DNA of 44,220 bases from a virus (lineage: Duplodnaviria > Caudoviricetes). A program made the translations under genes and the position numbers. The notes under the pieces were generated by a model that was not told where the DNA came from, ran no database searches, and was given only the letters and a program-made list of their open reading frames with translations. Location of the stretch: the IMG/VR virus record IMGVR_UViG_3300017644_000118, positions 1 to 44,220 of that record. One strand, written 5' to 3'. Positions 3,059-27,927 of the stretch are shown one piece after another. How positions within the stretch are numbered: position 1 is the first letter of the stretch; each line of letters starts with the position of its first letter.

Positions 3059-3121
3059 ATGAAGTTTCTTCTTTCTCGTGACCACGGATGTACTGGCACA
3101 AAAGAAAGAAGTTGACTTTAG

Positions 3122-3147
3122 GGTCGGGCATTCGCCCGACCTTTTTT
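3122..3147 (+). terminator. Rho-independent terminator after csp
   Basis: ggtcgggc-attc-gcccgacc followed by T6. Confidence 0.85.
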
Positions 3148-3186
3148 ATTGCTCGGCGAGGGAGCCAACACAAAAGAGAGATTAAA

Positions 3187-3387
3187 ATGAATAACCATGA
3201 AGAGAATATCGGCCTTACCATTCCGAACACTAACTTTAGCGTGGCGAAACATGCTGTTGCTACGCAGCGCGATATTGAAGACGCTCACAAACAGATGTCA
3301 TCACCCTCAGAGGATTGGTCAAAGCTTTCCAATATACTTAGACGGTCATGCGGAGGCTCATCGCGAAAACGTTCTTTTCGTAGATAG
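3187..3387 (+). CDS. Hypothetical protein (uncertain)
   Basis: ATG at 3187 after a purine-rich RBS-like sequence; no motif recognised. Confidence 0.3.
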   Translation: MNNHEENIGLTIPNTNFSVAKHAVATQRDIEDAHKQMSSPSEDWSKLSNILRRSCGGSSRKRSFRR

Positions 3388-7187: not shown

Positions 7188-7526
7188 TTAAATGAGTACG
7201 AAGAAGCGGACTGTTCGCGCTCTGCCGTCGATATTGCGAACGCGACAGACGGTGTAAGGCTCCCACATCTCGGCGCAGTAGGTTCCTCGGTTAGCCTGCA
7301 CCCCGTCAGAGCCTCGCAACACCACATAAGGGATTGCACCTGTGGGGTTTGGTATGGAGAAGTCCTGACTGCCAGCCCCGCCGAATGTCACTATTCCTGA
7401 ATAGGCGGGCCGCATTGGCTCCATTCCTGGATAGAGCGCCATGTTTTCCGGTGAAGCCACAGCGGCGTCATACCCCGGCTTGGATATCTGAAGCCCCGCC
7501 GGACTGAGAATGATCCTCCGAGCCAT
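7188..7526 (-). CDS. Small tail-tip protein
   Basis: Start MARRIILSPAGLQISKPG overlaps the upstream stop. Confidence 0.75.
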   Translation of the reverse strand: MARRIILSPAGLQISKPGYDAAVASPENMALYPGMEPMRPAYSGIVTFGGAGSQDFSIPNPTGAIPYVVLRGSDGVQANRGTYCAEMWEPYTVCRVRNIDGRARTVRFFVLI

Positions 7527-7978
7527 CACAACAGCCTGTTCTTGAACACGATGTACTTGATTTTCAGCGTCTGGGAAAAGGTATACCCGGTGCATCGCCA
7601 CCATATTCCGTTAGTCGAAACGGCGCATTTCACATCGACAGGATATCGATCCGTGGCAGCAGATGTATCATTCGGGAATATCACGCGGTTGTTAAGTCCT
7701 CCCTCGCTGTCGATGCAGACAGTAAAGAACACCAAAGGAATGTATCCCAAATCTGGGAAATCAACCTTCAGAATGTAGTCGTATCGACCGCCAGCCCCAC
7801 CGCTCCCATTGTTTATCATCACGTCACCGGCGGGCGCGCCTCTTTGGTGAACCTTCAGATAATCGTTGTCGGATGAGACAATGGCGGGGTCAGCAAGACT
7901 GGTTGCGCTATAGCCCGGAGGCGAAATGCGAAACAGCATTCGTGAACCAAGCTGCCCCATGAAGATGCGATTTGTCAT
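7526..7978 (-). CDS. Small tail-tip protein
   Basis: ATGA coupling; N-terminal motif shared with both neighbours. Confidence 0.75.
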   Translation of the reverse strand: MTNRIFMGQLGSRMLFRISPPGYSATSLADPAIVSSDNDYLKVHQRGAPAGDVMINNGSGGAGGRYDYILKVDFPDLGYIPLVFFTVCIDSEGGLNNRVIFPNDTSAATDRYPVDVKCAVSTNGIWWRCTGYTFSQTLKIKYIVFKNRLL

Positions 7979-8394
7979 CCTTCAAAAACCCAGAAGCGGT
8001 GAATGTAGTTGAACGAAGGGTTCGTCTCCAATGACAGACCATAGATGGATGATGTGCTGATATCGTACCGACCGGTGAGCAGGAATATTCCCTTGGCATT
8101 CGATGGTGGCGGGGGAATTGAAGAAATCCCGCCCCACATGCCGCTCATTTGCTGCTTGTCCATATCCACGATCATTAATGCAACGACCGATGGGATGTAG
8201 TTCAACGCATACGGGAAGTTCACCTTTGTATCCGTCAGGGAGTTCGCCGTGAGCTGGAACTTGATCCCGCCACCATAAAACCAGTCACTGTCGAACGTCT
8301 TTTGTGCATCCGGCAATGAAGGTGATGCATTCTGCCCCGGTTTACTCGTGATAAGCCGGGGAGGATTGCCACTCAGATAAATGCGCTGGGCCAT
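7975..8394 (-). CDS. Small tail-tip protein
   Basis: Immediately downstream of the J-like gene; MAQRIYLSGNPPRLITSKPG. Confidence 0.75.
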   Translation of the reverse strand: MAQRIYLSGNPPRLITSKPGQNASPSLPDAQKTFDSDWFYGGGIKFQLTANSLTDTKVNFPYALNYIPSVVALMIVDMDKQQMSGMWGGISSIPPPPSNAKGIFLLTGRYDISTSSIYGLSLETNPSFNYIHRFWVFEG

Positions 8395-8400
8395 CGGTCC

Positions 8401-11025
8401 TCACGTATTGTCACTGAAGATCAGCGTCTTCGCTGCAAGGTTGAACACGACCTGATTGTCAGGCGACCGAAGAATGCCCGCCGTCACGTCACCGATATTG
8501 GCGACCTGAAGGGCCAATGCACCGCCGATGAAGGTCATTGGAGCCTGACTATTCGTGCCATTCGTCACAACGAACTGATCTGCGTTGATCACGACACGGC
8601 TCACCGATGCGTTCACATCGAAGAACATTGCTGCTGTAGACCAGTTTCCTCCTGATCCGCCGCGGACCTGAATGCCATATCGAGCCGACCAACCCGACGG
8701 TGCAGCCGTCGCTTCACCGCGGACGGTTACACTTGCAGAAACGTCACCGACCTGCACTTGCAGTGCTGTGATTGCATTCGCATTGGCGGTCACATTCCCG
8801 TTGGTCGTGGTTATCTGCGTTTGAAGAAGATCAACAGCCTGCGCGATGTCGCTATTTACCTTGACTTCTAGGTTCTCGATACGGGTGGCGATTGCCGAAC
8901 CCGGACCGACTGCAACCGCGATGGCTTCGGTATACGAAGCGGTCAGACCTTCAGCGGACGCCGTTAGTTCACGGCGCAGTATCTGCTTATCGGTATAGTT
9001 CGCGCTGTCCTGTTCGGCCGCCATAGCACCGATACGGTCAAGCTCTTCCTGAACATATCGGAAGCTGTCACCGATCCATTCGAGGTTCTTCTGAATGTCT
9101 TCATTCAACTGGTCGATGTCGATTGGATAGATATCGAGCGGCCCAAGCCGGATATCCAGCATCGTGACAGGTATCCAGTCCGACCATTCGAACGGACGGT
9201 TCCCGGCATATGTCGCGTATCGGGCGCGGATTTGATACGACTTCGTGGGAAGTAGCAGCATCCCCGGAGCCACGAGCATCGATCCGACAGAAACCCGTTC
9301 GGTGCGGCCTGCGAAGATAACGGACAAATCCCAAGCCGTTCTGATCTCGTACATGACCAGATCGACATCGGGTTGATCGCCATCCCATCCAAGCAGGATC
9401 GCGCACCGGCGGTTGTTTCCGTTATCGTCCTGTGCCACCGATGCGACGGCTGAGAAATCGACAATCGGCTGAGGCGTCGGGCGGATCGTGCCAATTGGCG
9501 CAAAGACCGGCGGCGTGTAATCCGTATCAGGGTCCCAATCGTAATCGGATGGATCGACTTCCGTCAGGTCCACCACGACATCAAGATTGGCTTTGTCCGT
9601 CACGCCATCAACGCGCATGAGCTTGTTGACGTAGCCGTTACGCTCAGATGTCCACGAAATCACATCGCCCGGTTCCAGCGTCCAGTAGGCCGGCGGCAGG
9701 ACGAACGTGTGACGACGGGCACGGCGGGCCTCATTCAAGGCCGCTTTCATCAGGCGCTGCACCTGACCAGACCGATAGACATAATCCATCGGCACATCGG
9801 TCAGCAGGCGTCTATTGCCGTCCTCGACCTCATATGTGGCGTTATGGAGCGGCGGCGCTGCCTTGGTGTTCCATCCTTCATTCGGCTCTGGATACGTTGC
9901 CGTGATCCCGTTGACCGTCTCAGACAAGCCGAAGAACGGCGTGAAGGTTTGCTCCTCGGTCGAAATGATTTCATCGTCCGTGAAGAACGCCACCGGAGCA
10001 TCGGGTTCACCCACACGGATTTTGTAGACGCCAGCGCTTTCGATCAGACGCGCATTGCCGCCAGTCAGGAGCTTATCAACCGCATCGCCAATCGTAGTAT
10101 CAACGGTTATTTCGCCACCAGTGACGAACTGCGGCTCCAGACCGTCAGGACCTTGCACCTGCAAGCGACACTTGTTGATCTGCGCAATCCAGTCGGCAGC
10201 AGGCAAACGCGCACTGGTGACCGTCTGGAGGCCGTACAGCCACGTTCCTTGTTCGATAATGCCGCGAAGCAGGTTATAGACCTGCACCGCAAGCAAATCG
10301 TCGCCATCGCCGCCCCATGTAGACGGGTCTGACCACCGGTGCGTCCCGCTGCCGCCTGCCGTGCTGTCTTTCGAGATGTCGTATAGCTTGCGGCCCTGTA
10401 TCTCGAATTTGAACTGCGGGAAGCCGGTGAACAGTTCCTCATCGATCTGGGCCGTGACGATGGCATAGGCCACGCCTTTGCCGATACGCTTGTTGCTATA
10501 TGGGTATCTAGAGTTCGAAACCGTGTTGACGAGGAACGGATCGGCTACGGTCTGTGTGCCGTCATACCATTTGATCCAGAGGTGATTGTCGTCGCCATCG
10601 GTCTCGTATTCCTTAACCGGGAAGCCCCAATCGCCGTAAGATGTATCGCTCGTATCAATGGTGACAGGTTCGCCATTGACCCACAGCCCGGTCAAGTCAC
10701 GGATTGGATGATCAGCAAGCGCAATCACCTGAGTGAAGTAGGCGTTCGGCGTCTTGCCAGACTTGCCCCATGTGTTCGCATAAACCAGGGACCCCGCCGT
10801 ACACGTGCGACCGAACACGACAGAGCGCGAAACGTCGCCACCGGCCTGAAGCTTGCCTTTTACGCCGCCCGCTTCTGGTGTCTTCTCGCCAGACAATGCA
10901 CGGGCGGCCAAAGACAAGCCAACGCCCACCGCAATACGCAGCAGCGCGCCACCAAGTGCACCTGACAAAAAGGTAGACGAAAGCAGGCCGCCCACGATTG
11001 TGGACAAGCCAGTAAAAACAGCCAT
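8401..11025 (-). CDS. Central tail fibre / tail tip protein (gpJ-like)
   Basis: 874 aa; SVVFGRT..AGS, FEIQGRKLYD, LEPGDVI, a coiled coil, and a DUF1983-like C-terminus (SRVVINADQFVV). Confidence 0.9.
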   Translation of the reverse strand: MAVFTGLSTIVGGLLSSTFLSGALGGALLRIAVGVGLSLAARALSGEKTPEAGGVKGKLQAGGDVSRSVVFGRTCTAGSLVYANTWGKSGKTPNAYFTQVIALADHPIRDLTGLWVNGEPVTIDTSDTSYGDWGFPVKEYETDGDDNHLWIKWYDGTQTVADPFLVNTVSNSRYPYSNKRIGKGVAYAIVTAQIDEELFTGFPQFKFEIQGRKLYDISKDSTAGGSGTHRWSDPSTWGGDGDDLLAVQVYNLLRGIIEQGTWLYGLQTVTSARLPAADWIAQINKCRLQVQGPDGLEPQFVTGGEITVDTTIGDAVDKLLTGGNARLIESAGVYKIRVGEPDAPVAFFTDDEIISTEEQTFTPFFGLSETVNGITATYPEPNEGWNTKAAPPLHNATYEVEDGNRRLLTDVPMDYVYRSGQVQRLMKAALNEARRARRHTFVLPPAYWTLEPGDVISWTSERNGYVNKLMRVDGVTDKANLDVVVDLTEVDPSDYDWDPDTDYTPPVFAPIGTIRPTPQPIVDFSAVASVAQDDNGNNRRCAILLGWDGDQPDVDLVMYEIRTAWDLSVIFAGRTERVSVGSMLVAPGMLLLPTKSYQIRARYATYAGNRPFEWSDWIPVTMLDIRLGPLDIYPIDIDQLNEDIQKNLEWIGDSFRYVQEELDRIGAMAAEQDSANYTDKQILRRELTASAEGLTASYTEAIAVAVGPGSAIATRIENLEVKVNSDIAQAVDLLQTQITTTNGNVTANANAITALQVQVGDVSASVTVRGEATAAPSGWSARYGIQVRGGSGGNWSTAAMFFDVNASVSRVVINADQFVVTNGTNSQAPMTFIGGALALQVANIGDVTAGILRSPDNQVVFNLAAKTLIFSDNT

Positions 11026-11044: not shown

Positions 11045-11479
11045 CTAGAGCCGTTTCAAAAAGTGTCGTTCCTGCGCCATGTAACCGTGACGCTCGTAAA
11101 GTCGTGTCGTGACTGGATCGCCGCCCAGACCGACCATATTGACCGCGTGGCATCCCTTTGACCGCGCCCAAGCCTCATACTCGGCTAGCATCTTCACAGC
11201 GCCACGGCCCCGATAGGCCGGATCAACCCACCAGACGAGCTCTTGCGCGCACAGCTCCAGACTGAAAAAATGCGGTTGGACCGTCGCCGCAAAGATGCCG
11301 CGCAGGCAGCCATCCATTTCGAGGACGAGAGCGAGAGAATTGTCATCAGCCAGAACCCGGTCAATCGTCTGGCTGGCAAGGGCCGCACTGAAAGCAAGCC
11401 CTGCCCCGCTTTCGGCATGAAACCGCTTGACCATCGATAGAATACCCAACCGGTCCGCCGTCACAGCCCGACGGATCAT
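11045..11479 (-). CDS. GNAT-family acetyltransferase in the tail module
   Basis: WWVDPAYRGRG acetyl-CoA motif and LYERHGY. Confidence 0.88.
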   Translation of the reverse strand: MIRRAVTADRLGILSMVKRFHAESGAGLAFSAALASQTIDRVLADDNSLALVLEMDGCLRGIFAATVQPHFFSLELCAQELVWWVDPAYRGRGAVKMLAEYEAWARSKGCHAVNMVGLGGDPVTTRLYERHGYMAQERHFLKRL

Positions 11480-12758: not shown

Positions 12759-14831
12759 TTAGCCTCTCCAATTCCTGGTTGATTTGGCTTTGCGCATGGT
12801 TCCAACGACACGGCCCTCAAACTCAGCCTGTTGCCGCGCAACAACCTGCTCAAGACGAGCCACAGCTGCGACATCAGCCCCGCGAGCATCAATCTGGGGA
12901 GCGAACGTGAATGTTCCTCCCGATGATCCGCCGCCTGACAGCTTAGCCGGTGAGCCAATCGCGTGATTGGGTATTACCTGTGATCCGCGAGGGAGGTTCA
13001 CGAGCTCGGGACCACGTTCGCCAACGATAGCCAATCCGCCTGGAGCGTAGTTCGTGCCGGTCGCGAAACCGGGAATCAGACCTCCCAAAAAGCCGCCACC
13101 GCCGCCCGATCCCTTGAAAAGCCCGGTGAACAAGTCATCAAAAACCATATCGAGCAGCTTCTGTGCAATGCGCCCGAGAGCATTCGAAAACGCATCAGCC
13201 GCTGATTTACCGGCGATCAGATCATCAACGATACCGCGTGTCGCATCCTTGGCCAGATCCTGCCATTCTTCCGAACGCTGGCGAATCTTGTCCTGAGCCT
13301 CCGCGAGCTGATTTGCCTCGGCAGTTGCTCGGGCATACTCATCCGCAATCCGGCCGATGTTCTCGCGCATTTCCGGCGTGATCGCCTTGCCGTCCTTTTG
13401 GGCGGCATTCATCAGAGCCTGCTCGGCACGAGCCTTGGCCAGCGTGTAACCGTAGTCCTCGACCGTGGCATCGAGCTTCCGCAGAGCTTCTGTTTCGGCG
13501 ACAGTGGTTGCGGTCCGATCACTGAAACTGCGCGATGTCCGCTCAAGATCGCTCTCACGTGGCTTCCGCGGTTTACGGTTAGCTTCACGTTCAGCCTTAC
13601 GACGAGCCGATTCCTCTGCCGATCTGCGCTTATCAGCCTCGACATTCTGCTGTGCCAGATCACGAAGTTGTTTCTCGGTTAGTACTGCGCCAGCCTTGTC
13701 CGCTTCGGACCGAACACGAGCGATTTCGTTCTCGACATCGAGCTGATCCTTCGACATCGCATTGCGCTTTGCAGCGTTGGCGGTGAACTCGTCTGTTTTC
13801 TTAGAGAGCTCATCAAAGCCTTTGATAAGATTGGCGGCGTAGTCCTCAAAAGGTGCCTTGCCAGTCTGCATGTTCGCTTGGGCATTGAGCTCTGCAGTTG
13901 CACGGGCTGCCTCATTCAGCGGGCCGATAAGAGCCGAAATGGCACTTGCGAAACTATCAATTGCCGGAATGCTTGTGGAATTGAGCAATGTCGACAGAGC
14001 TTCGGTGACCGCTTGATAATCCTTCTGTGTCGCCGTGCCGGCTTCGATGTTGCCTTTTAGATTGAAGAACGTTTCACGGAATCGCTCTAGCTCCTCAACG
14101 GGAGCTCCTGCACCCTGCAGCTGAGCCATAAGATCGGCATATTCGACCGTGAAGCCGCCGACCTGTTCACGCAATTTTGCCCACTGATCGGCGACAGCTA
14201 CAGCGGTGGCGTCTTCGACCTTCTTGTTTTCCTCGACCTTCCGGCGCTCATCGTTGTAGGCCTTCAGGGCAGGCAAAGCCTCGCCCCACTTGTCAACGAC
14301 GTCCTGAATTAGTTGAGCTTCTTTCTTAAGCTGCTCCTCCGACTTCGTGCCGCTCGTGAAAAGCTCATCGAAGTATGAAATCGCAGCACTGCCCAACAGA
14401 ACGAAAGCCGTGGTTGCCAAGCCAAGTGGGCTGATAAGGCCAGCAACGGTAGACTTCAAGGCGCCCATTACGCCTGTCATCTGTCCACCGTACATCGTAA
14501 TCTGCGGCAGCTGCTGAGCAAGGAGCATAAACGGTGACTGGCCAGCCGCCAGCATGGTGCCAATATCTTGAAACTGGAATGCCAGATTGCGCATCTGTTG
14601 CTGCGCAAGCTTGGATTCATCGGCAGTTTTCTTGATCGCTGGCGCCGCTTTTTCGAAGGCACCGATTGCGCTGTTGAACGAAACAGCTGATGCATTACCC
14701 GCCGTCACCGCTGCCTGTGACATTGCTGCGATGTTTTTCGTGAAGTTGGCAGATGCTTGCGCTATACGCTGATTATATGCATCAGTTTCTGCTCGTAGCT
14801 CAACGACCACCTGGTCAGCAGTGACAGCCAT
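12759..14831 (-). CDS. Tail tape measure protein
   Basis: 690 aa, Ala-rich and helical; NLAFQFQDI..LAAGQSPF..LAQQ; C-terminal FATG..VGERGPELV. Confidence 0.95.
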   Translation of the reverse strand: MAVTADQVVVELRAETDAYNQRIAQASANFTKNIAAMSQAAVTAGNASAVSFNSAIGAFEKAAPAIKKTADESKLAQQQMRNLAFQFQDIGTMLAAGQSPFMLLAQQLPQITMYGGQMTGVMGALKSTVAGLISPLGLATTAFVLLGSAAISYFDELFTSGTKSEEQLKKEAQLIQDVVDKWGEALPALKAYNDERRKVEENKKVEDATAVAVADQWAKLREQVGGFTVEYADLMAQLQGAGAPVEELERFRETFFNLKGNIEAGTATQKDYQAVTEALSTLLNSTSIPAIDSFASAISALIGPLNEAARATAELNAQANMQTGKAPFEDYAANLIKGFDELSKKTDEFTANAAKRNAMSKDQLDVENEIARVRSEADKAGAVLTEKQLRDLAQQNVEADKRRSAEESARRKAEREANRKPRKPRESDLERTSRSFSDRTATTVAETEALRKLDATVEDYGYTLAKARAEQALMNAAQKDGKAITPEMRENIGRIADEYARATAEANQLAEAQDKIRQRSEEWQDLAKDATRGIVDDLIAGKSAADAFSNALGRIAQKLLDMVFDDLFTGLFKGSGGGGGFLGGLIPGFATGTNYAPGGLAIVGERGPELVNLPRGSQVIPNHAIGSPAKLSGGGSSGGTFTFAPQIDARGADVAAVARLEQVVARQQAEFEGRVVGTMRKAKSTRNWRG

Positions 14832-14843
14832 AAGGGGGCCTCA

Positions 14844-15104
14844 TTGGATAATGGATTGAAAGTTCTGATCGCAGCGGCATGCGTCGTGATCATTGCCGGC
14901 GGTGCTTATTTCGGATGGACGCAATACCGGGAGGCGCAAGTAACGGCAGCGCAGACGGCACAAAGTGACAGACAAGCCGCTTGTCGCGGTACGTTGACCA
15001 AAGCCGGGGCGCCCTTGCAGACACTTCGCGATGAATGCCGTAAGGCAGGCCTCATTTCAGATGAGGAATATTACCGGGCAAACAGCGGGCAGTTCACCGA
15101 CTGA
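14844..15104 (+). CDS. Antisense-oriented small membrane-anchored protein (moron)
   Basis: N-terminal TM helix plus a two-Cys domain; fills the gap between the TAC and tape measure genes. Confidence 0.7.
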   Translation: MDNGLKVLIAAACVVIIAGGAYFGWTQYREAQVTAAQTAQSDRQAACRGTLTKAGAPLQTLRDECRKAGLISDEEYYRANSGQFTD

Positions 15105-21131: not shown

Positions 21132-21212
21132 TGTGGTTACCTACTATCGCTATTGTTGTAGGTGGGAGAGAATCATGGTCATCTCATTGTGTTAACCAGC
21201 AAGGGGCTGAAC

Positions 21213-21371
21213 ATGGCTAAGACACCAAAGGGGCACTCACCAAAAATCGAATCTCTAGCGGGAAAGACACTAGCGAACCCGAATGCGGGGAAGACCGCGA
21301 AGAAGCTCGCCGGGGCCGTGCTTGCTCATTCCGATGGGAAACCCAACAAGCCTGCACCTAAGAAGAAATAA
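21213..21371 (+). CDS. Small basic hypothetical protein (antisense moron)
   Basis: 52 aa, Lys-rich; AAGGGG RBS. Confidence 0.6.
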   Translation: MAKTPKGHSPKIESLAGKTLANPNAGKTAKKLAGAVLAHSDGKPNKPAPKKK

Positions 21372-24579: not shown

Positions 24580-26027
24580 GAGTAAGCTTTCATCATTTGT
24601 TCGAGGGTGTAGCCTTCAATGTCTATGTTCACATTGTCCGCTGCGATTACCGCATCAGCGAGGTTGTGCGATTTAACGCCCAGATCCTTTTTGAGCTTCA
24701 GCTTAGGAACAACGCGCTTTTTGCCTTCGCTCTCCACCCACCAGGGAACGCAGAGTTCAGTGAACAGCGCGTCGAGCTTCGCCTTCCCCATTTCGGAGGA
24801 AAACGACAGCACATCTTCCGGCTTGATCGATTGGCCTCGCGTGACCGCGTTGAATGTCAGCATGGCCCGCCGGGCCGTATTTGCCCACGCCTGGGCCTTC
24901 AGGTTCAGATATTCGTTCTTGTTCAGCGGACTATTGCTGTTCAGTGGGTCACTTGGCTTATCGCCATCCATAACCGCGCCGCCGGCATGGAACGCGAAAT
25001 GCTCGACATTTGTGTCAGATAACCGGTTCTGCTCATCGATATAGCCGCCGACAAACGCCCCGACGCCGATTGTGTCATATGACACAGTGGCGCCGACCAG
25101 CTTTGCCTTAGCCCATACCCTCTTGGCATTCTGGACGAGCTCATCCTTTCCGGATGTCCAATCTTCCACATCTGTGAAAACGCCGTGAATCTTGTCTGCG
25201 GTGGCGCTTTTGTCCTCACCGTCATCGGCCGGATCAAATCCTATGACGTTCCGACCGGTTAAGCTGAGTTTCAGTACTGTATGGGCGTCTACACAAGCAT
25301 CCAGCCAGCGGCGCTTGAATATAGAAAGCTCGCTATCGCCAAGAGGAATGCCACCGTATACGTGCTCGAACATCTCCGGGTTGCGTTCCCGCATCGTGGC
25401 GATGTCCCGAAGCGCCTTCTGCGACAGAAAAGGATTTTCCGTATAGTCGATCTTCCTCACAACCGAGTGGGGCTGTTCCGTGACAACGAAATTCTTCCAG
25501 ACGAAATCAGTAACAAACTTCGGATTGAACAGCAGGATCGCAAGACTGTCCTCCTTGCGGATCGTTGGGCCGATAACAACCCACTGATCCTCAGTTAGTT
25601 TTTCAGCCTCCTCTACCCATAGAATGTCAACGTCCGAAGTCCCCTTGATATCCTCCAGATTGCGCTCGATACCGTAGAAGATGAATTCAGAGCCCGTGGC
25701 TCGATGAATGATCGTTGTCTTCTGAATTTCGTAAGATGCTTGCAAGCCGAGATGGTTAATGGCCCACTTTAACTCGGTGTAGACCGATTCCTGAATGCGG
25801 TTCTGAAAGCGCCTGATACACAGAACGCGCATTCGTACCGGCAGGTGATCAATCAACCGAACCAACTGGCATGCCGTATCACGGGTTTTGGAGCTCGACC
25901 GCCCTCCGTGAAGAACCGCAATATCGGCTTTGCCGAGGAAAACGCGCTCCCAAAAGTCGTATAGGTTCGGGTTGGTGAGATATGTCGCGGCTTCTATCTC
26001 TTTTCGCTGCGCAGCACTTCCCGCCAT
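24576..26027 (-). CDS. Terminase large subunit (PBSX family)
   Basis: Walker A GGRSSSKT, Walker B ILWVEEA, nuclease GFDPADDGED and NLADA. Confidence 0.96.
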   Translation of the reverse strand: MAGSAAQRKEIEAATYLTNPNLYDFWERVFLGKADIAVLHGGRSSSKTRDTACQLVRLIDHLPVRMRVLCIRRFQNRIQESVYTELKWAINHLGLQASYEIQKTTIIHRATGSEFIFYGIERNLEDIKGTSDVDILWVEEAEKLTEDQWVVIGPTIRKEDSLAILLFNPKFVTDFVWKNFVVTEQPHSVVRKIDYTENPFLSQKALRDIATMRERNPEMFEHVYGGIPLGDSELSIFKRRWLDACVDAHTVLKLSLTGRNVIGFDPADDGEDKSATADKIHGVFTDVEDWTSGKDELVQNAKRVWAKAKLVGATVSYDTIGVGAFVGGYIDEQNRLSDTNVEHFAFHAGGAVMDGDKPSDPLNSNSPLNKNEYLNLKAQAWANTARRAMLTFNAVTRGQSIKPEDVLSFSSEMGKAKLDALFTELCVPWWVESEGKKRVVPKLKLKKDLGVKSHNLADAVIAADNVNIDIEGYTLEQMMKAYS

Positions 26028-26539
26028 GTTCTTGTCTCTGTCTGTATCGGTCCGCCGTCTGGCCCGGAATGCTCGTGCTTCTCGATCATAAATCCGAGCA
26101 TTTTAGCCATATCGACAAGTGCGCCCTTCTTATCGTGAAGCTTAAACTTGACGCGGCGAACGTCTCGCGCATCTTCTCCCCGACCATCCTTGAAGTCCTC
26201 GACGGTGACCTCGGCCAGCGCTGCGGCTTGCTCGCGCGTCAGGTTCGAGAAATCCAGATACGGGTCACCATCTGTCCCTGCTCGCATGTAATCGAGCATG
26301 TTCGAGAAGCCGATCTTGGCCAATTCCTCGACAATGCGCTCTTTAGTGATTTCAAGCTTGGCAGCGGTCTTGTTCTGACCTTTTGCGATGGCTTGCTGTA
26401 CCTTAACATTGGTTAACAGGCGCGAACCTTGTTCAGTGGCAGTCTTCTCGCTGTACCCTGCCCGTATCGCTGCTTGTGTGGCGTTCAGGTCAATCAGGTA
26501 TTCAGCGACAAACCGCTCTTGTTTCGGCGTGAGACTCAC
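25994..26539 (-). CDS. Terminase small subunit
   Basis: LTPKQERFVAEYLIDLNATQAAIRAGYS and KLHDK..AL..LAK.LG-like motifs. Confidence 0.96.
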   Translation of the reverse strand: MSLTPKQERFVAEYLIDLNATQAAIRAGYSEKTATEQGSRLLTNVKVQQAIAKGQNKTAAKLEITKERIVEELAKIGFSNMLDYMRAGTDGDPYLDFSNLTREQAAALAEVTVEDFKDGRGEDARDVRRVKFKLHDKKGALVDMAKMLGFMIEKHEHSGPDGGPIQTETRTWREVLRSEKR

Positions 26540-26575: not shown

Positions 26576-26758
26576 ATGAGCGGGAAACCCCACATCACGG
26601 TTAGCATGGAGCAGGAAGGGCAGTACTGGCTTGTCATTACACTCAATGCCGACGGTCTCCGTCGCCAAGTGCGAAGGTGCAGAACTGAAGAAGAAGCTCG
26701 CGCGCGCATGGTCGAAGAGAAAGCACGGGTAGCGCCTCAAATCAGCCAGAGAACCTGA
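26576..26758 (+). CDS. Small hypothetical protein (antisense moron)
   Basis: GGGAGG RBS, ATG at 26576, 60 aa. Confidence 0.55.
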   Translation: MSGKPHITVSMEQEGQYWLVITLNADGLRRQVRRCRTEEEARARMVEEKARVAPQISQRT

Positions 26759-26987
26759 TTGTATGATTGCGCGTATTGATAACAACACGTCCGTCTGAGC
26801 TGCGAAGAACTAAACCAGCCGTTGAAGTACCGATATTGCTGGAATGAGCGCCCAGCGTTTCAGCAGTCACTCGAAACGTACCCTTGGCAATCTCGGTAGG
26901 CTTCTCCGCCCTTGGCAGCGCCATTGCAGGAACGGCAGCAGCTACAGGAGCGAGGCCGAGGAATTTGAGGAATGCGCGTCTCTTCAT
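26742..26987 (-). CDS. Tat-signal small protein with a C-terminus resembling the gpJ-like tip
   Basis: MKRRAFLK twin-arginine motif, h-region, AMA cleavage site; TAATG coupling to the upstream ORF. Confidence 0.7.
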   Translation of the reverse strand: MKRRAFLKFLGLAPVAAAVPAMALPRAEKPTEIAKGTFRVTAETLGAHSSNIGTSTAGLVLRSSDGRVVINTRNHTIRFSG

Positions 26988-27091
26988 TACTTTCCCCTTG
27001 CGGCAGCAATCCCGAGTACAACCAACTGCATCAGGATGACTACGCCGATGAAGTGCCAGAACGATTGGAAGGCGAATTCTAGGAACGCCAT
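26987..27091 (-). CDS. 34-aa single-TM peptide
   Basis: MAFLEFAFQSFWHFIGVVILMQLVVLGIAAARGK*; TGATG and TAATG coupling on both sides; absent from the ORF track. Confidence 0.6.
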   Translation of the reverse strand: MAFLEFAFQSFWHFIGVVILMQLVVLGIAAARGK

Positions 27092-27333
27092 CACACGACG
27101 CCGTTGCTTGCTGTAAGCCTGCCCTCGGAAATCTGGCGCTGACGGCGAGCAACTTCACGCGCACCATTTGGCTTGTAGGTGCGTCCACCTAGACGAATGC
27201 GCTTGCCTGTCGATCGATGGCGGTGCGGTGCTGGCGCAGCAATCTCTGGGAACGGTGAAGTCAATGCCCCGCTAAAGAACCCACGAACAGACGACAGCAG
27301 TGCTGCCGCCATGACACTGAAGCCAAAGCGCAT
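27091..27333 (-). CDS. Small basic hypothetical protein
   Basis: GGAG RBS; NGAREVARR.RQI..G.L motif. Confidence 0.65.
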   Translation of the reverse strand: MRFGFSVMAAALLSSVRGFFSGALTSPFPEIAAPAPHRHRSTGKRIRLGGRTYKPNGAREVARRQRQISEGRLTASNGVV

Positions 27334-27361
27334 ATCGTTCTCCGATGTTTGACAAAGACAA

Positions 27362-27379
27362 CCCCGCACGATGGCGGGG
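27362..27379 (-). terminator. Hairpin/terminator
   Basis: ccccgc/gcgggg stem with a T-rich tail on the minus strand. Confidence 0.5.
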
Positions 27380-27439
27380 CTGATTGTTGATCGCTTATTT
27401 AGACAGATGCGCTATCCTGATGGAAACAGGAGGGCAGCA

Positions 27440-27640
27440 ATGTATCAGATCAAGGTTTTGGAACTTCTCGAAGACGGTACGTCACGGCCATATGAGTTCA
27501 CCGAAATGGAAACCGCGCAAGAGTTCGTCCGAAACGCCACCTTCGATTTGAAGGTCTGGATAGAAAAGTACGGAATATTCGACCGTGACGACTTCTTGAA
27601 GCTCCGGTCTATGCCGCAGGATGAAGCCATCCCATTTTAG
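27440..27640 (+). CDS. Small hypothetical protein (antisense moron)
   Basis: AGGAGG RBS, 66 aa. Confidence 0.6.
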   Translation: MYQIKVLELLEDGTSRPYEFTEMETAQEFVRNATFDLKVWIEKYGIFDRDDFLKLRSMPQDEAIPF

Positions 27641-27846: not shown

Positions 27847-27927
27847 TGGCAGGCTCGCAGCAGGATTTGAACCTACGACCTGTGAACCGAAGTTCAATGC
27901 TCTATCCAGCTGAGCTATGCGAGCCTG
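27847..27927 (-). tRNA. Non-canonical/pseudo tRNA (Arg-like D loop) with a cUUCGg hairpin in place of a 7-nt anticodon loop
   Basis: TAGCTCAGCTGGATAGAGC D arm; GTAGGTTCAAATCCTGC T arm; 10-bp acceptor stem plus CCA; anticodon arm tgaac-TTCG-gttca. Confidence 0.75.

Follow-up and report, generated by a model that had tools for sequence, protein, structure and literature searches.

The closest described systems to the gene studied here are the tail-assembly blockers Tai and Tab and their antidotes (published systems are cited throughout from sections of the respective papers). Tai and Tab are small prophage proteins encoded in the same genomic slot and directed at J and tape measure: mutations that escape Tai map to the C-terminal region of J and to P22 gp26 (PMC11364771), and the tape measure is recognised by Tab (PMC10884400). 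Both are constitutive morons with their own promoter, Tai on the opposite strand, and Tab is without similarity to known proteins. The antidotes Ati (anti-Tai, phi80 orf64), located before the phi80 packaging module (PMC11364771), and anti-Tab (JBD26 gp30), located between terminase genes (PMC10884400), are late-expressed and bind their respective blockers. Additionally, the central fibre is the conjugation target of a ubiquitin-like system (10.1101/2023.09.04.556158), and what Avs receptors recognise in tape measure, capsid and portal is mostly the fold (PMC13581612).

In this study, we analysed a mini-gene in a provirus record of 44,220 bases, referred to as the window, whose minus strand contains the late region of a siphophage (Table 1). 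The mini-gene, in which a twin-arginine-type leader precedes a cargo, closes a translationally coupled run of genes encoding 80, 34 and 81 aa just upstream of the terminase small subunit gene, and the run is flanked by opposite-strand genes of 66 and 60 aa. Ati and anti-Tab resemble the mini-gene in being small, in belonging to the late operon at the packaging module and in having an opposite-strand or constitutive moron as neighbour. Both safeguard tail assembly, and the blockers they counter attack the C-terminal region of J and the tape measure, the two cargo sources found here. Compared by description only, they are unlike the mini-gene in being cognate antidotes, for which the cited sections report neither an export signal nor target mimicry. 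In contrast to Tai and Tab, the mini-gene lies on the late strand and is built from pieces of the target. Across loci it is located on the late strand, either before terminase or within the tail operon, and this position and strand agree with the late expression assumed in the earlier note, which we consider probable. The host group is likely Ochrobactrum/Brucella, since it is the source of most named homologues of the mini-protein and the nearest named J (99% identity over residues 600–874) is labelled Brucella intermedia.

Table 1. Positions of the mini-gene, its parts, its cargo sources and its neighbours in the window.
Feature	Position	Strand	Remark
Tat-leader mini-gene: leader, linker and J-tip-like cargo	26742..26987	-	81 aa
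Twin-arginine-type leader, residues 1–23 (K-R-R-A-F-L, h-region, predicted A-M-A cleavage site)	26919..26987	-	
Cargo residues 45–80, homologue of J 837–871	26748..26855	-	
J-like hub/central tail fibre, main cargo source of the family	8401..11025	-	874 aa; PHROG 5616
J 837–871, tip segment copied by the window mini-protein	8413..8517	-	
J 616–725, helical spine and first prism strands	8851..9180	-	source of up to 31 cargos in a 10-residue bin
Tape measure protein	12759..14831	-	assignment from size and gene order
Hydrophobic peptide, translationally coupled, optional	26987..27091	-	34 aa
Upstream ORF of the coupled run, optional	27091..27333	-	80 aa; 4/22 loci
Terminator-like hairpin just before the 80-aa/34-aa/mini run	27359..27382	-	consensus match only
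Moron-like gene, opposite strand, within late region	27440..27640	+	66 aa; 9/22 loci
Opposite-strand gene, 3' end overlapping mini-gene 3' end by 17 nt	26576..26758	+	60 aa; 2/22 loci
Terminase small subunit, first packaging gene downstream of mini-gene	25994..26539	-	PF03592, E=4e-36
Three small genes after J	7188..8394	-	139, 150 and 138 aa; without Pfam hit

Behind its leader of the form MKRRAFLK...AMA, the mini-protein ends in NHTIRFSG, while the J-like protein ends in KTLIFSDNT. BLASTP aligns mini-protein residues 45–80 to J 837–871 with 17/36 identities (E=2e-5), and the Smith-Waterman score of 64 against J was reached by none of 3000 shuffles (mean 32, maximum 55), nor by any of 200 shuffles compared with all stop-to-stop ORFs of the window (maximum 58). 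The likeness to the J tip, for which the earlier note had counted 16 identities in 30 columns, is thus correctly counted and exceeds shuffled controls. The DNA 10-mer accgatattg that the same note pointed out is indeed present at 8491 and 26829, but it spans merely the codons N-I-G, and as a sign of recent copying it was rejected. Judged from its codons, the window cargo is an old capture from J and no fresh copy, since pS amounts to 0.55 and pN to 0.46 against the phage's own J over 35 aligned codons. Its identity to any of 101 J proteins is only 47–49%, with none above 49%. Searches with the mini-protein yielded no PHROG family better than E=0.08 and, in the ESM Atlas, unnamed viral clusters with a best score of 0.86, which is a lead only; a PDB sequence search with the mini alignment returned nothing relevant.

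The window leader K-R-R-A-F-L corresponds to the Z-R-R-x-hydrophobic-hydrophobic Tat motif (PMC13673990) at the boundary of n- and h-region. The Tat-type leader recognised in the earlier note proved to be conserved, with RRxFL in 102 and AxA in 101 of 104 homologues, the latter as AMA at residues 21–23 of the window protein. Arg3 and Arg4 are invariant in 22/22 loci despite the use of five and three different codons, and TatC was found in three of three host genomes carrying family members, all of them other than the window's own host. The leader scores 15.9 bits against the TIGR01409 cut-off of 16.7, which it narrowly misses, and 16.4 bits against the curated PF10518 cut-off of 22.7. With Tat substrates as described by PF10518, TIGR01409 and PMC13673990 the mini-protein has motif, h-region and AxA site in common; it differs from usual Tat substrates in being phage-borne, about 90 aa long and composed, in its mature part, of a virion fragment. 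The cited sections of the Tat review (PMC13673990) make no mention of a phage Tat substrate, and those of an Ochrobactrum phage paper (PMC5492332) no mention of Tat. On sequence grounds, the conserved RRxFL and AxA motifs point to a released periplasmic product. An uncleaved anchor or non-functional leader, which would hold a tail-like surface at the inner membrane for staging or timing of the phage's own tip assembly, would be in line with the scores below the Tat cut-offs, with an n-region of just two residues and with the location of some minis within the tail operon. Nevertheless, we consider this explanation very improbable in view of the AxA conservation, the occurrence of non-self cargo and the optional nature of the gene, which has no match in 50,697 GenBank phage records and is represented by nine minis in 300 family genomes.

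At E≤0.001 the family comprises 104 proteins, the window's own included, with a median length of 93 residues, a near-invariant leader and mosaic sequence behind it. A 43-member profile found 148 matches among 1.84 billion proteins, and 147 of the matches are at most 207 aa long and carry very varied cargo. As an unbiased check, a 34-row profile was run on 301 family genomes (300 of them scored) and 401 order genomes, giving 15 and 11 matches, respectively, which represent 13 non-leader hits, nine distinct minis and three ordinary Tat proteins. All 13 non-leader hits in these 701 genomes are found at most 56 residues from the stop of long tail-type ORFs, as the earlier note had predicted in naming J C-termini as top matches. 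Longer proteins were also searched by a word-based method with nine aligned cargo rows; the one hit, to a tail-fibre C-terminal fragment (E=0.047), comes from a search too insensitive to count.

For the cargo, pN is smaller than pS in 14/14 pairs, and the same holds for the leader (pS 0.31 versus pN 0.11 over 22 loci). Between minis and their sources, the 14 pairs show pS of 0.55–0.95 versus pN of 0.33–0.50, where pN is pulled down by local alignment. By the measure of codon substitution, the mini-gene is a real coding gene with both leader and cargo under purifying selection. These data bear on the proposal that activity resides in the leader, which would occupy Tat or stress the membrane late in infection, with the cargo as a passenger providing a homology arm for recombination into tail operons. 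The leader varies far less than the cargo, also at synonymous sites (pS of 0.21 in the h/c-region), the cargo varies strongly behind it in the short proteins of the profile search, and the mini of L093, described below, shares its end with J almost to the nucleotide. However, protein similarity of the cargo is kept while its synonymous sites are near saturation, and cargo is always in frame and taken from few segments, which renders this proposal quite improbable.

Considering the source protein, the J profile matches lambda J, T1 fibre and T5 pb3, and J 650–781 matches P22 needle gp26. An AlphaFold2 model of J (mean pLDDT 81) displays helices at 629–671, long strands at 680–814 and short strands up to 870, and Foldseek with this model retrieves siphophage hubs and J. 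According to the model, the layout of J follows the F7 pyocin fibre, which features spine, coil-to-prism switch, seed prism, beta-helix and tip, with AF3-predicted docking of small receptor-binding proteins, encoded just downstream, to the C-terminal tip (PMC12874032). By analogy with PyoF11/F12 of that system (PMC12874032), the three small genes after J likely encode tip-docked receptor-binding or adaptor proteins. The window cargo has its homologue in the final 35 residues of J/central fibre proteins (PHROG 5616, PF09327; F7 pyocin CFP, lambda gpJ, T1 fibre) and that of relatives in J spine, prism and hub motif; unlike J, they are shuffled fragments behind an export leader.

Compared with 28 genes of the window, 56 of the 104 cargos match J, 10 the tape measure and two weakly the lysin, while the other 25 genes have no match; this set is biased to tip cargo by the tip of the query, from which spine and tape-measure modules are absent. 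From this distribution, the choice of cargo is not random as far as sequence matches tell. For mapping, 132 of 139 proteins were used, since the leader pattern failed for seven. At E≤0.01, 86/132 cargos match 101 J proteins, compared with 0–1 in five shuffled sets, and nine of these 86 match the tape-measure part of one fused protein. With a 54-sequence J profile, 78/132 cargos outscore the best of 1320 shuffles, and these cover J 606–735, 786–874 and 208–221 only, leaving out the predicted switching core J 736–785 (0/78). Within J, too, cargo choice is not random, since the 78 cargos map to few segments although J 1–600 is as conserved as the copied ones. The tape measure constitutes the second cargo source, in the window with its C-terminal residues 645–687: tape-measure C-ends match 21/132 and N-ends 10/132 cargos, each scoring above 100 shuffles (about one expected by chance). 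According to hand-made motifs, 46/132 cargos stack a tape-measure piece ahead of a J piece and 22/132 are without motif, and J pieces within cargos often occur in changed order. Leader and cargo combinations appear to arise by recombination, because both leader n-region types are found with tip cargo as well as with spine cargo. A simple deletion of the tape measure–J interval as origin was rejected, since J modules are often reversed. A correlation of J-conserved with mini-conserved columns (rho 0.57) is partly built in and was not relied on. It should be noted that unassigned cargo types exist (e.g. L008, L010, L016), that P0258 is a 652-aa fusion of a tape-measure C-terminal part with the C-terminal 380 J residues, either a chimera from a natural deletion or an artefact of assembly, and that two unrelated phages each contain two nearby Tat-leader mini-genes whose cargo is unassigned (L025:6626-7223 and L026:8765-10294).

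In five distant Tat minis (P0154, P0164, P0169, P0170 and P0212), motifs were seen by eye which we took to resemble portal, capsid or terminase Walker A. Such cargo was mostly rejected, as PHROG gave no support for it in a scan of 101 proteins at E≤0.05; their named matches belong to tail, tape-measure or virion-structural families, and none to capsid, portal or terminase. A capsid-like motif of L017 reached E=0.1 only and was not counted, leaving as the sole capsid case the L023 mini of an unrelated phage (L023:5601-5837; L066:2011-2973), in which a Tat-type leader is combined with the N-terminus of the phage's own major capsid protein (48% over 33 aa, E=2e-5).

The mapping does not sustain the dedicated tip decoy of the earlier note, as relatives swap the tip for pieces of J spine, prism, hub and tape measure. 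Its suggestion that receptors are occupied or re-adsorption blocked is likewise disfavoured: instead of receptor-binding cargo we find spine, prism, tip, hub and tape-measure pieces, most of which are not receptor-binding modules, and an F7-like tip is predicted to be a dock (PMC12874032). By analogy with the F7 fibre, cargo would favour the non-switching parts of J, and the tip would be a docking site and no receptor-binding domain. A broader envelope-side exclusion would let the mature peptide, in the periplasm or freed at lysis, block receptor use and re-adsorption or the channel or fibre switch of an incoming phage. The conserved leader motifs with their presumed periplasmic product argue for it, as do the periplasmic channel formed by the tape measure (PMC12617516) and the arrest of ejection upon blocking of the fibre switch (PMC12874032). 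However, most cargo corresponds to J spine, prism or tip, which the cited structures place outside the outer membrane, the switching core is not copied, for the tip, docking of receptor-binding proteins is predicted rather than contact with the receptor, and the capsid-derived cargo of L023 is without periplasmic target. We therefore regard exclusion at the envelope as unlikely. T5 Llp and Cor are periplasmic exclusion proteins in phage–phage conflict. Comparable to the setting proposed for the mini-protein, the P-FimU prophage mimics are prophage-made, envelope-directed and involved in phage–phage conflict (PMC12952977). While P-FimU, Llp and Cor mimic or block host surface parts, the mini-protein mimics virion parts of the phage itself.

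To what extent cargo matches the phage's own tail was assessed in 13 prophages with tails, a small and related sample richer in type-A references. In five of them, all with the J type of the window (type A), no tail type is a better fit for the cargo than the phage's own; in four, another tail type fits far better, and in four the cargo is unassigned. In the four discordant prophages, scores for the other versus the own tail are 95 versus 44 (G003), 88 versus 56 (G007), 81 versus 30 (G013) and, for a tape-measure cargo, 63 versus 21 (G008). Strict co-variation with the phage's own tip, a check proposed in the earlier note, is consequently not supported. Three of seven further family-genome minis (L093, L095 and L100) beat 100 shuffles against their own tail gene and four did not, with a neighbourhood of 20–32 kb compared per mini. 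The L093 mini (L093:9215-9937) is located in the tail operon between J and tip gene, is coupled by TGATG and scores 118 against its own J (shuffle maximum 48). Of its last 37 nt, 36 are identical to the end of J, so that two small ORFs are bracketed by a direct repeat with a spacing of 686 bp. Since this end is common to J while the rest has diverged, recent recombination with J is suggested, either as insertion or as cargo refresh, indicating a route for cargo exchange. The L094 mini (L094:9799-10059) also belongs to the tail operon, where the distal-tail and hub genes (named by likeness to the window order) lie on either side of it; it is TGATG-coupled to the hub gene and contains tip-like followed by prism-seed-like pieces, i.e. 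in reversed order. In three prophages with family minis (L060:8276-10048, L062:7506-9278 and L075:6557-8383), J measures about 590 aa, comprises the hub alone and lacks the fibre.

Cargo fitting another tail type in four of the 13 prophages, one of them a phage whose J is without fibre, could indicate an assembly poison or scavenger, with cargo co-assembling with J, tape measure or small tip proteins and Tat deporting the complex, be it made of a rival phage's subunits or of the phage's own surplus. In the model, the copied segments would be oligomer or docking surfaces (helices 629–671 and terminal strands), laid out like the trimeric F7 fibre (PMC12874032), and Tai and Tab show that blocking of tail assembly is a real prophage strategy. 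Yet all five type-A prophages carry cargo matching their own tail, and the minis of L093 and L094 are coupled genes within the tail operon, so that a poison would hit the phage itself, whereas a poison aimed at rivals should avoid self. Furthermore, a consensus scan of the minus strand upstream of the mini-gene found no sigma-70-like promoter of its own, and given the upstream hairpin, the run likely needs read-through. Both variants, against rival subunits and against own surplus, are therefore rather unlikely in our view. If either poison or exclusion were true, the modules would be natural peptide inhibitors of tail assembly or entry.

We propose, with a probability of roughly 0.4, a model in which the mini-gene encodes a late-expressed bait for Tai/Tab-like assembly blockers, which are removed by Tat; this builds on gene, selection, homology, swapped and stacked modules and position as observed, with export, expression and binding predicted. 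The mini-gene would be transcribed only in the lytic cycle, and its cargo would adopt a J-like surface, probably as a trimer, to which blockers resembling Tai, Tab or Bil would bind, whether produced by the host or by co-resident prophages. The blocker would then leave the cytoplasm by piggy-back Tat export or be trapped at the translocase, while cleavage by signal peptidase at AMA would release the product. Tat reportedly co-exports bound partners. Stacked modules could act as multi-epitope bait, with shuffling tracking the local set of blockers. We favour the bait because the copied parts, which as free subunits occur only in the cytoplasm of lytic cells, are targets of tail-assembly blockers, and because the antidotes Ati and anti-Tab share the slot, are late-expressed and bind their blocker. 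Self-matching recurs in the five type-A prophages and in L093, L095, L100 and L023, which favours bait as well. Further arguments for it are the non-random choice of cargo, with J 650–781 matching the gp26 in which Tai escape occurs, the opposite-strand genes around the mini-gene, the selection on cargo and leader, and TatC in the host genomes.

Several points stand against the bait. The 47–49% identity of the window cargo to any J may be too little for a specific blocker, pieces of 20–40 residues may fail to fold, and many sensors recognise entire folds (PMC13581612). Cargo fitting another tail type or matching none in eight of the 13 prophages, four each, argues in the same direction, as do the four of seven further minis failing the shuffle test against the compared neighbourhood. 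In the sections cited, nothing describes the known antidotes as target mimics or Tat substrates. No blocker was identified in hosts with mini-genes: PADLOC gave no hits on eight local ORFs, the 66-aa gene included, with a 2023 library older than the Tai and Tab papers.

Should bait be the correct reading, it would represent counter-defence by eviction, each cargo would mark a virion surface under immune attack, and tail-sensing defences could be found by pull-down with 40-residue baits. A further-reaching version, which we consider tentative and on balance doubtful, is that phages keep a recombining library, with a fixed Tat leader and captured, stacked and shuffled pieces of their own virion (central fibre and tape measure in this family, capsid in a distant phage), as baits evicting virion-sensing or assembly-blocking immune proteins via Tat; in that case, the catalogue of cargos would chart which virion epitopes are read by bacterial immunity. 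Whatever the target, a host export tag joined to interchangeable virion fragments and kept by selection constitutes an undescribed gene design. The earlier note knew of no similar system, and our literature search, which included few subscription papers and no supplements, found no phage Tat-leader proteins made from virion fragments; the EVADES tables of anti-defence proteins (10.1101/2025.06.06.658234) and the Tai supplements may bear on this. The gene family is real and selected, and its modular design is apparently undescribed.

Concerning the surroundings of the mini-gene, the 34-aa transmembrane peptide overlaps its ATG via TAATG, confirming the coupling described in the earlier note, but as an obligate partner it was rejected, being present at only 3/22 loci. 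In RNA contigs from four of 21 runs, one low-depth contig spans the 3' end of the mini-gene and one piece covers the leader of a relative, so that expression is not rankable. The 66-aa gene, 88–97% conserved at its nine loci, with hairpins on both sides and present in RNA-library contigs of four runs, is a candidate constitutive defence moron without known family. Further small opposite-strand genes within the structural operon are located at 14844–15104 (+) and 21162–21371 (+), both without PADLOC hit. A 194-aa gene, a putative late regulator, matched unnamed clusters only and a DUF6456 lead in the ESM Atlas. A tRNA-like gene at 27851–27925 (-) displays an irregular anticodon loop without ARAGORN assignment. 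Directly upstream of the L006 mini-gene, on the opposite strand, lies a pair (L006:3378-3698 and 3064-3378, minus strand) which by eye we take to be BrnT/BrnA toxin-antitoxin-like. A 144-aa gene at 11045–11479 (-), labelled GNAT-like by eye, is located between the hub gene and J and is also found in L094.
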